From Pristiophorus japonicus (lineage: Eukaryota), in the NCBI RefSeq assembly GCF_044704955.1, contig NC_091980.1:129332001-129396000 (forward strand): 64,000 nt of DNA, in the 5' to 3' direction. Below are positions 330-61,475 of the stretch, in pieces. A model generated the notes under the pieces. It did no database searches, had not been told where the DNA came from, and worked only from the letters and a program-made list of their open reading frames with translations. How positions within the stretch are numbered: the stretch's first letter is position 1; each line of letters opens with the position of its first letter. Position numbers and translations under genes: made by a program.

Positions 330-3153
330 ATGAGGGTCGGTGCTCCCAGTGGAGAGTTTGTGCAGATCCAGCAGACTCTGGTTGACATTCTTCTCCATCT
401 GCAGAGCTCTCTGCATCGCCTCCAGACCATTGCTCCACTCATCCTGCTCTGGTTTCTGAAGCAGAAAGTCACAGGCAGTTCACTTACAATGGAACAAACT
501 AAACAAGAGACAGTACAAGGAAAATAGGGGTGAAAAAGCAACCAGACATCAATGTTACCATAAACAATGTCACAGGAATATAGAATTACTGCATTCCAAT
601 ACCACAACCATGGAGCCAATTCCTTTAGGAGGTATTTGAAACAAGCAATCTTAGGGGATCCAGATAGGAGGCCACTCCTTGATTGAACCAAACCTTGATG
701 TCCGCCAAGATGATTCGGCCTCCACGCTGATTCTGGAATTCCATCAGTTTCTCAGCATGCTCACATTCCTCATGTGACTGCTCCTTGAAGAACTCAGCAA
801 AGTGACGCAGGGCAACATCATCCCGGTCAAAGTAGAAGGACTATGGAGAGATCAGAATTTTTGGGCATCACATGGCAGACCTATTATTGTGGGTATTGTA
901 CATAAAGCCAAACTCAATTTTGCTTCCGGCAAAAGGATTTAAAGTCTCCCTGAATTTCCATGTACAATGTTACACAGGCGAGCACCAGCCCATTGACTTC
1001 ACTAATGTGGTAGAGAGAGTGGATAATCCCCTAGCAATAGGGAAACTGGCTAATGGAAAAATCAAGTGATTGGCAAAAGGACAAGGACTAGAGGAAACTT
1101 GGTTATTTTTAAATGCATGGGCAATTTGAAAGGATGGTGGAAGTAAATTAAATGGCAACATTAAAAAAAAAAGACTTAATACAGACAAATCTGTAAGGCT
1201 GAGATCAAGCAGGGGAGAGAGACTAGTTGGATAGCTCCACTCAAGTCAGCACAGGCATGATGGGCCAAATGGCCTCCTTCAGTGCAGTATCATCCCATGG
1301 TTACCAATTCAGCTTTGATAGAACATGCTCCAATCTAAACCTTAATCTTGGCACCGAATGCTCATGTGTAGCTTTAGAAGTGAGATTTTTTATTAATTAT
1401 TATTATTATTATTATTATTATTATTATTATTATTATTATTATTATTATTATTATTATTATTAATAATACACAGTACCACACCAATGATGGCTTACTGACC
1501 CCAATCTATTTTGTTCAGGCTATACATGGGGCACTACTAGAAAAGTAGAGATCTAGTCACAGTGCACAATTCATACAGTACATCAGGCCCAATTGTTACT
1601 GGCTACATTCATCCCGTGGAACCAAAACTAAGCAGCATTCATTTCACACCTTCAGCACTAAACATCAAGGTATTCCAACAGACAACCAGATACCACCCCT
1701 CAGAGTTTGAGGTCAAGGTAGGAAAGCAGAGGGATTAAGGGAGAGTTCCACCGAGTAGGGGGGGAAATGGCTGAAGGCTTTACCACCAATAAATCAAAAA
1801 GGGAGTTAGAGAAAAGACAAAGGCAAAAACTGGTAGCTAAAATCGAGGTCGTCAAGAACGCAAGGAACAGGAGTAGGCCATTCAGCCCCTCAAACCTGTT
1901 CGACCATTCAAATGGTCAGATCTGCAGCTTACCACCATTTATCCAGCAAGTAATTAGGACAGCAAATGGTGTTAGCATTTGTTACAAAGGGATTAGATTT
2001 CAAGAGTAAAGAACTCTTTCTACAATAATATAGGGCATTGGTATGGACACATCTGGAGTATTTTGTATAATTCTGGTCACCTTACCAAACAAAGGACATA
2101 CCTGCCTTAGAGATGGAACAAAAGTTCACGAGACTGGTTCCTGGAATGAGGAGATTGCCTTATGTGGAGATTGAGTAGACTAGGCCAATGTTCTAGAGTT
2201 TAGTAGAATGAGGTGCAAATCTAATTGAACAAAATTCTTAAGGGGCTTGACAGGGTTAAAGCTTATCCTAACTGGATATATCTAGAACCAGGGGGTCATA
2301 GTTGGAGAATAAGGGGTTGGCCATTAAAGTCTGAGAAAGGTTAAAATTTCAATACTCAGAGGGTGATGATTTATGGAATTCTCTACCCCAGAGGGCTGTG
2401 GATGCTCAGTTATTGAGTATATTCAAGACAGGAGGTCAATTTATTTTTGGGAAACTGAAGAAATTATGGACCAAGGGGATAGTGCGGGAAGGTGGAATTG
2501 AGGGAAGAGATGAACCAAATGGCCTACTCCTATTGCTTATGTTCTAATCCCTTGATACCCTTACCCAACAAAAACCTTGCCCAGGCACCCACAGATTTGG
2601 GTGGGTGGAATATGGGAAGCAGGGAGAGAATACGTTCCAAACTTCCACCATTGCTTCTTGATTTCCCTCCTAAATTGTCTGGTTCTAATTTGAAGACTGA
2701 ATCCCCTCATTGCAAACAGCAAGGTAGGGAAAGGCCATGGAGTGATTTGGAAATGAGGATATAAATTCTGAATTCCATGCATTGAAAGCAGAGTGTATTA
2801 CAAACAAACTTCAACTACAAGCTCACAAGAGCCCAGGAAAAAGAATCATTAAGATTCACCGATTATGGCTCAGGTACTGCATGGAACAGAGGCAGTTTGT
2901 TAAAGAATACACAAGGTGATAATTTCTATAGTATAGCTTTAACAAATGAATTCACTGCATCAAGTGAGGGGTGAGCCAGATACAGCACAGAATGTAGTAA
3001 ATTCACATTGCACAGGTTCCATTGTGAAGTGCTCAGAAATATAAGACTCACCATGGAGAGATAAACATAGGAGGAACAGAGCTCCATGTTGACCTGCTGG
3101 TTGACAGCAGCTTCACAGTCCTTGGGGTAGTTCTGATGCACTTGAGATTCCAT
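330..3153 (-). CDS. fth1: Ferritin heavy-chain-like gene, copy 1 (exon1 3052-3153, exon2 694-840, exon3 330-455; exon 4 left of the window)
   Basis: Spliced translation [129 protein letters not shown] at all junctions; coding exon sizes 102/147/126 nt, intron positions as in vertebrate ferritins; no stops. Carries R9H, H13P, Y29C, R63C. Confidence 0.9.
1396..1461. repeat. (ATT)n microsatellite in copy 1 intron 1
   Basis: About 22 perfect units; the paralogous site near 48828 has only ATTATT. Confidence 0.97.
1940..2545 (+). mobile_element. Old CR1 LINE 3' fragment in copy 1 intron 1
   Basis: Decayed QQVIRTANG / YRALV..HLEY / WNSLP motifs; also present in copy 5 intron 1. Confidence 0.75.
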
Positions 3154-3174
3154 CCTAATTTGCTTTTCCAAAAA

Positions 3175-3197
3175 TCTAAGCCTTGTTGAAGCAAGAA
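3175..3197 (-). promoter_or_regulatory. Degenerate iron-responsive element remnant in copy 1 5' UTR
   Basis: TTCTTGC-TTCAA-CAAGGC-TTAGA versus canonical H-ferritin IRE TTCCTGC-TTCAA-CAGTGC-TTGGA, between TATA and ATG. Confidence 0.7.
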
Positions 3198-58581: not shown

Positions 58582-60417
58582 GACATACAACATGAGAAAT
58601 AGGAGCAGGAGTAGGCCACACAGCCACTCGAGCCTGCTCTGCCATTTAATACAATCATGGCTGATCTGATCATGGCCTCAGGTCCACTTCCCTGCTTGCT
58701 CCCCATAACATCTTTAAGAAACTGTCTATTTCAGTCTTAGTTTATAGAATGTCCCAGCTTCCACAGCTCAGAGGCAGCAAATTCCACTGATTTACAACCC
58801 TCAAGATATTTCTCCTCAGTTTTAAATGGACAGCCCCTTATTCTAAGATTATGCCCTCTAGTTCTAGTCTCCCCCATCAGTGGAAACATCCTCTATATCC
58901 ACCTTGTCAAGCCTCCTCAAAAATCATGTTTTGATAAGATCACCTCATTCTTCTGAATTCCAATGTCTAGAGGCCCAACCTATGCTCAAGTCAACCCCTT
59001 CATCTCCAGAAATCAGCCTAGTGAACCTTCTCTGAACTGCCTCAAGAGCAAGCTTATCCCTTCATAAATATGGAAACCAAAACTGCACTCAGTATTCCAG
59101 GTGTGGCATCACCAATACCATGTATAACTGTAGCAAGACTACCCTGCTTTTATATTCCATCCCCTTTGAAATAAAGGTCAGGATTCCATTGTCCACCCTA
59201 ATCACTTGCTGTACCTGCATACTATCCTTTTGTAATCCATGCACAAGTACCCACAGGTCCCACTGTACTGCAGCATTTTGCAATTTTTCCTCCATTTAAA
59301 TAACTGGCTTTGATTTTTTTCTGCCAAAGTGCAGGACCTCACACTTTCCAACATTGTACTCCATCTGCCAAATTTTTGCCACTCACTTAGCCTGTCAATG
59401 TCCTTTGGCAGATTTTTGGGTGTCCTCCTCACACATTGCTTTTCCTCCTATCTTTGTAATGTAGCCAAGTTTACTGACAATACACTTAGTCCCTTCTTCC
59501 AAGTCATTATAGATTGTAAATAGTTGGGGTCCCAGCATGGATCTCTGCAGCACCTCACTAGTTACTCATTGCCAACTAGAGATTGAACCATTTATCCCAA
59601 CTCTTCTGTTGGTTAGCCAATCCTCTAGCCATGCTAATATTACCTCCAAAGCCCATGAACTTTTATCTTGTGCAGTAACCTTTTATGTGGCACCTTGTCA
59701 CATGCCTTCTGGAATCCAAATATACCACATCCACTGGTTCCCCTTTATCCATCCAGTTCATTACATACTCAAAAGAATTCCAGCAAATTTGTCAAACAAC
59801 TTCCCCTTCATAAATCCATGCTGACTGCCTGACCAAATTTCCTCTAACTGGTTTATAGTTTCCTGATTTATATAGACAGACATTTGTAGTTTTCTGAAAC
59901 TGTTGGGAACTCCCCAGAATCCAGGGAATTTTGGTAAATTACAACCAATGCATCCACAATCCCTGCCTCTACTCCTCTTCAAGACCCTAGGATGCAAGCC
60001 ATCAGGCTCAGGGGATGTATCTGCCTTACTGAGTACCACCTCCTTAGTGATGGTGATAGTTCCTCCCCCCTATAGGAATATTTTTAGTGTCCTCTACCAT
60101 ACAGACTGATACAAAATATTTGTTCAGAGTTTACCATCTCCATGTTCCCCATTACTAATTCCAGTCTCACCCTCTAAGGGACCAACATTTACTTTAGCCA
60201 CTCTTCCTTTTTAATATACCTATAGAAACTCTTGCTTTCTGTTTTTATATCTCATGCTAGTTTACTTTAGTCTAGCATCCTTTCATAAACATTTTTTAAG
60301 TCAATCTTTGCTGGCTTTTAAAAGCTTCCCAATCTTCTGTCCTCCCACTAGTTTTGGCCACTTTGTATGACCTTGTTTTTAAAATTGGATACCATCCTTT
60401 ATTTCTTTAGTTAGCCT
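58582..60417 (-). mobile_element. Decayed CR1 LINE in copy 6 intron 1
   Basis: SPEPDGLHPRVLK, QHGFMKGK and VMPHLEY remnants; absent from copy 4. Confidence 0.85.
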
Positions 60418-61318
60418 AATCCTGCTTCTATGTTCTAGGTACTACTTGAGAGTAGGGGAGATTTCTGCAGTGTCCTGGCAAATATTTATCCCTTAGCCAA
60501 CACACTGAAACCAATGATCTGATCATTATCCCATTGCAGTTGGAGAGCTTACTGTGCAGTAATTGGCTACTGCATTTCCCACATTACAACAGGTGACTAC
60601 ACTGAACTACTTCATTGGTTACAAAGCACTTTGGGACATTCCAAGGTAGTGAAAGGCACTATAGAAATGATGATTCTTCCATTCTAATCCAAGTTTGGAC
60701 ATAGAGTGAGAAATATCCTCCACTCCAGTAGTTTCCACAGCAAGTGGGCAATAGAGATCTCAGCAGTGAGCAAGGCTCCAACACCAGGATTCTCAGTACT
60801 TCACCTCCAATTAATGAGAACACTAGTGAGGAGCTGCCCACATTTCACTAACTACAGTCCCCCACTGAAACTGAACATTGTTTCAGGTCAACAGGCCCCT
60901 AACCAGGTTTGTGCTCTTCTGTTGCACTCAGGCAGCAGCAGAGCAGGTTTCAGATATTACACCTCAATAAAGGGCAGCTGCTACAGGGAGCAGTCCATTA
61001 ACTCAACAAGATCCCCTTGTATTACACACCTGAAGTCCTCACTGCCCAAAGACTCTTCTCCCCCAGGGAATGAAGTTCAAAGAAATACAGCTTAAAGCCA
61101 GTTCATGGAACTGGAGAATTAACAACTTTTCAGAATGCAACAACAAGGAATACACAACTCACCATGGAGAGGTAAATATAGGAGGAACAGAGCTCCATGT
61201 TGATCTGCTTGTTGACAGCAGCATCACAGTCCTGGTGGTAGTTCTGACACACTTGGGAGGCCATCATTACTATCACCTACACAATTCTGGCACTAACCCT
61301 GTCTCACACAAGCTCCTG

Positions 61319-61475
61319 TATTTATACTACTGGAACAGCCTACATTCTAACAAGGAGTGTCATGACCAATGATGATTGACAATCCCTGAGAGCCAGTCAG
61401 GAATCTTCCCTGAATTCAAGCACCAATTAAAAAGGAGAGGGTGTGTGGGGAAGGGAGTGAGACCCAGAGCCAATC
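61319..61475 (-). promoter_or_regulatory. Copy 6 core promoter
   Basis: TATAAATA at 61319-61326 and several CCAAT boxes; homologous to the copy 4 promoter. Confidence 0.6.

Follow-up and report, generated by a model that had tools for sequence, protein, structure and literature searches.

The window analysed here, a 64,000-nucleotide stretch of the 5.9 Gb Pristiophorus japonicus genome (G000; C4:129,332,001-129,396,000), forms part of a long row of tandemly repeated ferritin genes. It holds six ferritin units, c1 to c6, all on the minus strand, two of which are intact (c1 and c2) and four broken (c3, c4, c5 and c6). Five units have an exon 1, with ATG codons at 3153, 10249, 38007, 52087 and 61264. 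The sole unit both complete and intact inside the window is c2, whose four exons run from 10249 to 7598 and encode 181 amino acids ending in a short altered C-terminal tail. Unit c1 proves intact when exon 4, which lies a little beyond the window (L039:5811-5966), is counted in; this exon carries E134K in the 3-fold channel, and the c1 protein is identical to a sawshark-labelled protein (P0014).

The array extends far beyond the window. Patterns for exon 1 and exon 4 each gave 289 matches genome-wide; among the first 100 listed matches, 98 and 99, respectively, lie on C4 between 127.8 and 133.4 Mb, as do all 150 exon-2 matches scored out of 369 candidates. The resulting figure of about 290 units is a count that includes pseudogenes and, possibly, assembly duplicates. 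Unit c2 has a twin about 260.7 kb away (L060) that is identical over 3,600 bases (window 7100-10700), possibly a very recent duplication or an assembly duplicate; a third match with an identical exon-2 protein lies downstream, inverted. Among 31 array loci examined, 23 are intact, 4 broken and 4 cut off at the segment edge, a sample picked for high exon scores and thus biased to conservation in its intact fraction as well as in its ratio of nonsynonymous to synonymous substitution rates (dN/dS).

A preliminary description of this stretch claimed that none of the five 5' untranslated regions (UTRs) has an iron-responsive element (IRE) of the CAGTGN type, and this holds both by pattern, CAGTG being absent between TATA box and ATG in all five window units with an exon 1, and by comparison with Rfam, which at E up to 10 matched the window five times, never with an IRE. 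Genome-wide, the exact ferritin-IRE pattern matches seven times and the Rfam IRE model six times (82 candidates scored), in neither case on C4. Eight CAGWGH stem-loop sites with at least four of five upper pairs occur in the window, none within a 5' UTR; three related sites in upstream flanks (about 1.1 kb before the start codons of c4 and c6, and before c3) were rejected because their lower stems read as unpaired.

Units c1 and c5 and, more weakly, c2 contain the remains of an IRE; the UTR of c4 and c6 is of another kind and shows no such relic. A relic scan covering this genome compared 53 distinct array upstream regions with the IRE of the single-copy ferritin gene on C19; in 44 of them the best match falls 40-49 nucleotides upstream of the ATG, and 24 of the 53 reach significance on their own against shuffles (p up to 0.01). 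Loop base 3, originally G, is A in all 44 relics, base 4 is never U, and a GU or GA loop core occurs in none; the 5' arm can still be made out, and nothing is left of the lower 3' arm. Stray CAGTG appears in two of the 53 regions, once weakly paired and lacking the C bulge, once at the TATA position. A TATA-like box stands 65-115 nucleotides upstream of the ATG in 46 of 53 regions, a position that would leave little room for another IRE.

Judging from these relics, which persist in c1, c5 and, more weakly, c2, the IRE of the array is inactivated in place, and one early inactivation followed by decay would be the simplest reading. Binding by the iron regulatory proteins (IRPs) needs the IRE loop and stems. 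The requirement for the loop and the C bulge is also stated in one paper. We therefore infer that array mRNAs do not bind IRPs, and independence of the array from IRP control appears very likely. The earlier proposal of an amplified subfamily outside IRE/IRP control is thus strengthened by the roughly 290 units and the decay of the element.

The encoded proteins belong to the ferritin domain family PF00210 (E 1.4e-39 for P0008, identical to copy L074 of this genome). The ferroxidase residues E27, Y34, E61, E62, H65, E107 and Q141 are present in all 25 intact copies, as is D131 of the 3-fold channel; E134 is kept in 21 and replaced by Lys in four, including c1. In the window, ferroxidase and 3-fold residues are retained wherever the exon is unbroken, as had been described, with the correction that c1 carries its E134K outside the window. 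With dN/dS about 0.19 (276 pairs among 24 intact copies), this supports the view that array proteins are ferroxidase-type (H/M-type) ferritins under purifying selection. Their first residues are those of the conserved ferritin N-terminus, not preceded by a leader, and they would be cytosolic.

The best protein matches to the array are ferritins of sharks, rays and chimaera. The phylogeny against canonical genes that the preliminary description had called for comprised a quick tree of 136/148 rows and a careful one of 34 rows. The 34-row tree places array proteins of sharks, rays and chimaera in one clade, with support 96/95, separate from FTH1 and M-type ferritins; the parent gene is not placed, joining of the clade with the C19 gene being neither recovered nor rejected in that tree (approximately unbiased test, p-AU 0.13). 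In its promoters the array leans towards the C19 gene, with a mean similarity score of 24.4 vs 19.0 (no shuffle control).

Decayed retroelements, with endonuclease plus reverse-transcriptase fragments and reverse-transcriptase plus integrase fragments, lie between units at window 12727-15413, 27345-27974 and 41421-44176, and a 1.8 kb tandem duplication, 92% identical, lies directly downstream of c3 (window 19197-22836). Such debris, together with the four broken units and the identical c2 twin, is what would be left behind if a locus prone to recombination had been amplified largely neutrally, with only a few copies mattering. The low dN/dS, the 23 intact loci among the 31 (a biased sample) and the persistence of the clade since the chimaera split make this account highly improbable. 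Coordinates of the window features are collected in Table 1.

Table 1. Ferritin units and associated features in the window (positions from the first base of the window)
Feature	Position	Strand	Remarks
c1 TATA box	3228-3237	minus	putative function
c1 decayed IRE relic, 5' UTR	3175-3197	minus	17/24 bases shared with the IRE of the C19 gene; loop altered
c1 exon 1	3052-3153	minus	Gln23, Cys30, Ala19
c1 exon 2	694-840	minus	
c1 exon 3	330-455	minus	
c2 TATA-like box	10331-10340	minus	
c2 weaker IRE relic	10277-10298	minus	15/24, measured on the identical twin L060
c2 exon 1	10148-10249	minus	Asp19, Lys23
c2 exon 2	8617-8763	minus	intron-1 joint visible in relatives' contigs
c2 exon 3	8098-8223	minus	
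c2 exon 4	7598-7768	minus	
c2 poly(A) hexamer and overlapping Pumilio-like 8-mer	7515-7524	minus	putative function
c3, exons 3 and 4 only	23140-23761	minus	promoter through exon 2 absent
c4 pseudogene	35731-38078	minus	
c4 TATA	38068-38078	minus	
c4 exon 1	37906-38007	minus	Lys23
c4 exon 2	36543-36678	minus	frameshift by 11-nt deletion
c4 exons 3, 4	36215-36340, 35731-35886	minus	
c5 pseudogene	46855-52171	minus	
c5 TATA	52162-52171	minus	
c5 IRE relic	52109-52131	minus	18/24
c5 exon 1	from 52087	minus	Gln23; donor site lost and stop
c5 exons 2, 3, 4	48131-48277, 47601-47726, 46855-47016	minus	
c6 pseudogene	56653-61330	minus	
c6 TATA	61320-61330	minus	
c6 exon 1	61163-61264	minus	Lys23
c6 exon 2	57655-57798	minus	in-frame stop
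c6 exons 3, 4	57174-57299, 56653-56808	minus	
Pumilio-like 8-mer sites	7515-7524, 23020-23029, 35605-35614		

Two single-copy ferritin genes of this genome, on C14 (FTH1) and C19, each found once, combine a canonical IRE with Arg23, and a TATA-like box also stands upstream of their IREs. Vertebrate FTH1 and M-type ferritins (these two genes, human H and frog M) share with c2 68-70% identity, the same exon lengths and the full ferroxidase set, and differ from the array in having the canonical IRE, Ala19 (35 of 36) and Arg23 (34 of 36). Other ferritin loci were encountered as well. A four-exon ferritin gene lies tail to tail with the IRE-bearing gene on C19 (L057:6523-6717, L058:5293-9732); it has a 31-residue, Arg/Ala/Leu-rich, presequence-like N-terminal extension, Val at position 23 and no ferritin-IRE pattern match, and may represent an intron-containing mitochondrial ferritin in a shark. 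Four short inserts dispersed over C10, C12, C17 and C18 (L002-L005) consist solely of that part of the C19 gene's 5' UTR which bears the IRE, with no coding match within 1.5 kb. Separate L-chain-like shark ferritins (P0076, P0079, P0097, P0110 and P0113) have Lys at E62, mostly Glu at Q141, and also Lys23; no gene for this group was located in the present genome.

The preliminary description further held that all five exon 1 sequences replace the Arg at the site where ferritin meets its adaptor NCOA4 (Arg23 in human FTH1 numbering, reached by a +4 offset checked against PDB chains) with Gln or Lys. The replacement is borne out in the window, where c1 and c5 have Gln and the other three units with an exon 1 (c2, c4, c6) have Lys, and is sharpened by the wider sample, in which Lys is the rule and Gln a minority state. 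The array-type exon-1 pattern occurs genome-wide with Lys23 245 times and with Arg23 not once, and the 25 intact copies of this genome (c2 twin included) comprise 24 with Lys23 and one with Gln23; 18 have Asp19. In other chondrichthyans, 44 array-type proteins include 42 with Lys23 and 37 with Asp19, to be set against 36 canonical H/M proteins with the Arg23 and Ala19 counts given above; both groups were drawn from 120 matches, with 29 sawshark-labelled, 5 L-like and 8 fragmentary or unplaced rows excluded. Asn22, Tyr30, Val111 and Ser114 are mostly retained in array-type proteins. Asp19 is thus a second change in the cleft, absent from the earlier account. Since Asp19 and Lys23 are conserved and show no drift, the surface keeps some constraint.

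Human data bear on this cleft. According to the cryo-EM paper (PMC11076521), the FTH1 substitutions A19Y, N22A and R23A abolish NCOA4 binding, and R23L keeps 86% of co-immunoprecipitation binding with no binding by isothermal titration calorimetry; Lys shares the aliphatic chain that the paper names as a major contact, and R23K is not among the mutants in the sections consulted. On the NCOA4 side, deletion of residues 490-499 of the human protein abolishes ferritin binding (PMC4592949), and human binding has been mapped to residues 383-522.

The largest departure lies on this adaptor side. The genome has one NCOA4 match, on C22, in whose large exon the ferritin-binding stretch is shortened and devoid of Trp, with the gap inside one exon. 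The spacing of the I489...P493-L494...W497 motif between flanking anchors, defined from published residue numbers, is absent from all 13 elasmobranchs compared, as against its presence in 85 of 91 lobe-finned vertebrates with both anchors placed (of 106); the best 120 of 358 NCOA4 matches, from which these come, include none from teleosts, lamprey or human. Part of the motif, Leu-x-x-Trp-Leu, persists in chimaera NCOA4, and Heptranchias has a remnant in which Gly stands in place of Trp, which suggests that the motif was lost, not gained late. NCOA4 itself is retained and conserved. The chondrichthyan protein (L080:3167-4459, C22) also shows three tandem Trp-containing repeats in its mid-region and a longer C-terminus, and its Cys-rich segment matching PDB 9l93 is conserved.

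These observations bear on the earlier claim that loss of Arg23 lets the subfamily escape a working NCOA4 route, which is not supported as framed, because Lys keeps the aliphatic contact chain and because this animal's own NCOA4 is without the docking motif. The Arg23 argument is confounded, since the adaptor side is altered for all ferritins of these animals. An escape specific to the array, from a normal NCOA4 pathway still handling canonical shark ferritins, would fit the retention of Arg23 and IRE by the C14 and C19 genes beside an array with Lys at 245 sites and Arg at none; the missing motif tells against it, as does Ser22 in all four shark and chimaera FTH1 proteins seen, given the effect of N22A in human FTH1, and we regard this version as quite improbable. 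With all 13 elasmobranch NCOA4s lacking the motif, any release from NCOA4 probably concerns all elasmobranch ferritins, a lineage-wide change of the adaptor and not an escape by the array. That array cages are without canonical NCOA4 docking is, on this comparison, likely.

Transcription of the array is indicated by several lines of evidence. Contigs of two other organisms cover all four c2 exons, with joints at the predicted intron 1 and intron 3 boundaries. Among the contig sets compared, X15 matched no exon and the loose ends of X16 resembled other types of ferritin; a search of sequencing runs listed none recorded as RNA, a result that bears neither way on expression in this species. Intronless processed retrocopies of array-type mRNA were found at L040:4475-5011 (C3), starting inside the IRE relic, and at L041:5042-5203 (C4, 112.56 Mb); such copies imply that array genes were transcribed in the germ line and their mRNA spliced in the predicted way. 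Of 26 array 3' ends, 20 have a Pumilio-like 8-mer overlapping the poly(A) signal, as against none of three single-copy genes; this 8-mer could point to maternal-type mRNA control, a lead only, as the copies are related; no cytoplasmic polyadenylation element pattern occurs in the array 3' UTRs listed.

For the tissue of expression we turn to published data. The Greenland shark has 155 FTL-like and 179 FTH1-like copies, syntenic with those of the white shark, and its largest ferritin cluster shows ovary-specific expression (Sahm et al. 2024, bioRxiv 10.1101/2024.09.09.611499). Vertebrate ovaries are in general rich in ferritin mRNA (PMC1488847), and a ferritin is listed among liver-only proteins in PMC5568229, which, like PMC13701976 and PMC13026281, brings no direct evidence. 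The suggestion of oocyte or yolk iron storage made in the preliminary description thus gains support as regards the ovary, and a mainly ovarian role of the array is fairly likely; a function in the egg itself would be a further step. A somatic alternative is that extra copies buffer iron in lipid-rich tissues as a defence against ferroptosis and in favour of longevity. Yang et al. (2026, PMC13214024), who count 59 FTH1b copies in the Greenland shark, propose as a hypothesis that these act in ferroptosis and longevity, and found expression of some of them in fin and blood; loss of the IRE would permit a stress response independent of iron. The same paper notes high counts in shorter-lived sharks too, and the ovary-specific cluster, a clade common to many sharks, rays and chimaera, and about 289 units (pseudogenes included) in the present genome vs 59 annotated in the Greenland shark all argue against a somatic defence, which we hold to be improbable.

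We favour, at slightly better than even chances, the reading that the array is an IRP-independent, dosage-amplified ovary or egg ferritin that is not cleared by the known NCOA4 interface. The array would be an ancient chondrichthyan lineage of ferroxidase-active ferritin that arose by duplication of entire genes, starting from an IRE-bearing ancestor, in which the IRE loop was inactivated once, early, and whose copies turn over by birth and death. Because the loop is inactivated, its mRNAs would be translated whatever the cytosolic iron level, with output set by transcription and gene dosage. The likely job would be a large iron-sequestering capacity pre-built in ovary or oocytes, serving yolky eggs as an iron store and a guard against oxidation. 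Clearance of the cages through the known docking site is improbable, mainly because of the elasmobranch loss of the Trp497 motif; the changes at positions 19 and 23 of the array proteins (to Asp and Lys) may contribute. Absence of NCOA4 binding, slow turnover and an oocyte function are what we infer from these data.

Several points weigh against this reading. The contig evidence comes from other organisms only, with the tissue of origin unstated and no RNA of the species itself, and the expression of some FTH1b copies in fin and blood implies that the family is not strictly ovarian. An upstream non-coding exon may carry an IRE. The two single-copy genes retain Arg23 although NCOA4 is without the motif, perhaps for another reason or for another binder, and a conservative, conserved Lys23 would fit retained function better than a relaxed surface. 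Finally, an N-terminal look-alike of the motif, near residue 200 and with Gly at the Ile489 position, occurs in 10 of 13 elasmobranch NCOA4s, and also in chimaera.

A rival reading is a rewired turnover, in which the array is IRP-independent and NCOA4, or a different receptor, goes on degrading its products by way of an altered contact surface, for example by docking of the N-terminal Pro-Leu-x-x-Trp-Leu of shark NCOA4 on the Asp19/Lys23 cleft. The prevalence of Lys23 and Asp19 in other chondrichthyans, the cleft residues mostly kept around them, the look-alike and a retained, conserved NCOA4 would all agree with such an arrangement. The look-alike, however, has Gly where Ile489 is needed, is present in 34 of 104 lobe-fins, and lies well away from residues 383-522, to which human binding maps; Asp19 and Lys23, four residues apart on helix A, could instead form an internal salt bridge. 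We consider rewiring unlikely though plausible, and retain the reading of an ovarian ferritin beyond the known NCOA4 interface.

The array very probably belongs to the same family as the published shark FTH1b expansion (PMC13214024; bioRxiv 10.1101/2024.09.09.611499), with which it shares large tandem clusters of four-exon genes common to sharks, and 5'-truncated copies of exons 3 and 4, as in c3. It was asked in the preliminary description whether the finding had been described: the expansion is published, and three features were not found in print. The term IRE is absent from both main texts and the searched PNAS supplements (the bioRxiv supplements were not covered); NCOA4 is cited only generically by Yang et al. 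and not at all by Sahm et al.; and no passage on residues 19 and 23 or on the NCOA4 motif was found in the portions searched. More broadly, no description of IRE decay in the shark ferritin array, of its Asp19/Lys23 cleft or of NCOA4 motif loss in cartilaginous fishes turned up in the literature, most subscription papers being beyond reach.

IRE-less ferritins are known elsewhere. Snail yolk ferritin mRNA is not known to have an IRE, nor are mammalian mitochondrial ferritin and FTHL17, germ-line-biased vertebrate paralogues that are intronless retrogenes; the array genes, unlike these, retain three introns and have no targeting leader. Schistosoma ferritin mRNAs also lack an IRE, according to the title of a cited reference. 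The schistosome and snail yolk cases resemble the array as egg-stocked ferritins and differ in their independent origin.

One of the two genome papers ties the expansion to ferritinophagy, ferroptosis and extreme lifespan, assuming mammalian regulation. Loss of the IRE and of the NCOA4 motif would change this reading of the expansion, favouring egg provisioning over longevity. The greatest surprise, the state of NCOA4, comes from beyond the window. That sharks and rays are without any canonical NCOA4-ferritin docking and, in addition, possess an amplified, IRE-free ferritin clade is a tentative proposition, to which we give somewhat less than an even chance. If true, these would be vertebrates with an ovarian iron store outside both textbook iron-sensing controls, whose ferritin iron would be released by some other, undescribed route. 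The general question raised is whether, and by what route, iron can be mobilised from ferritin in a vertebrate that has no NCOA4 Trp497 interface.

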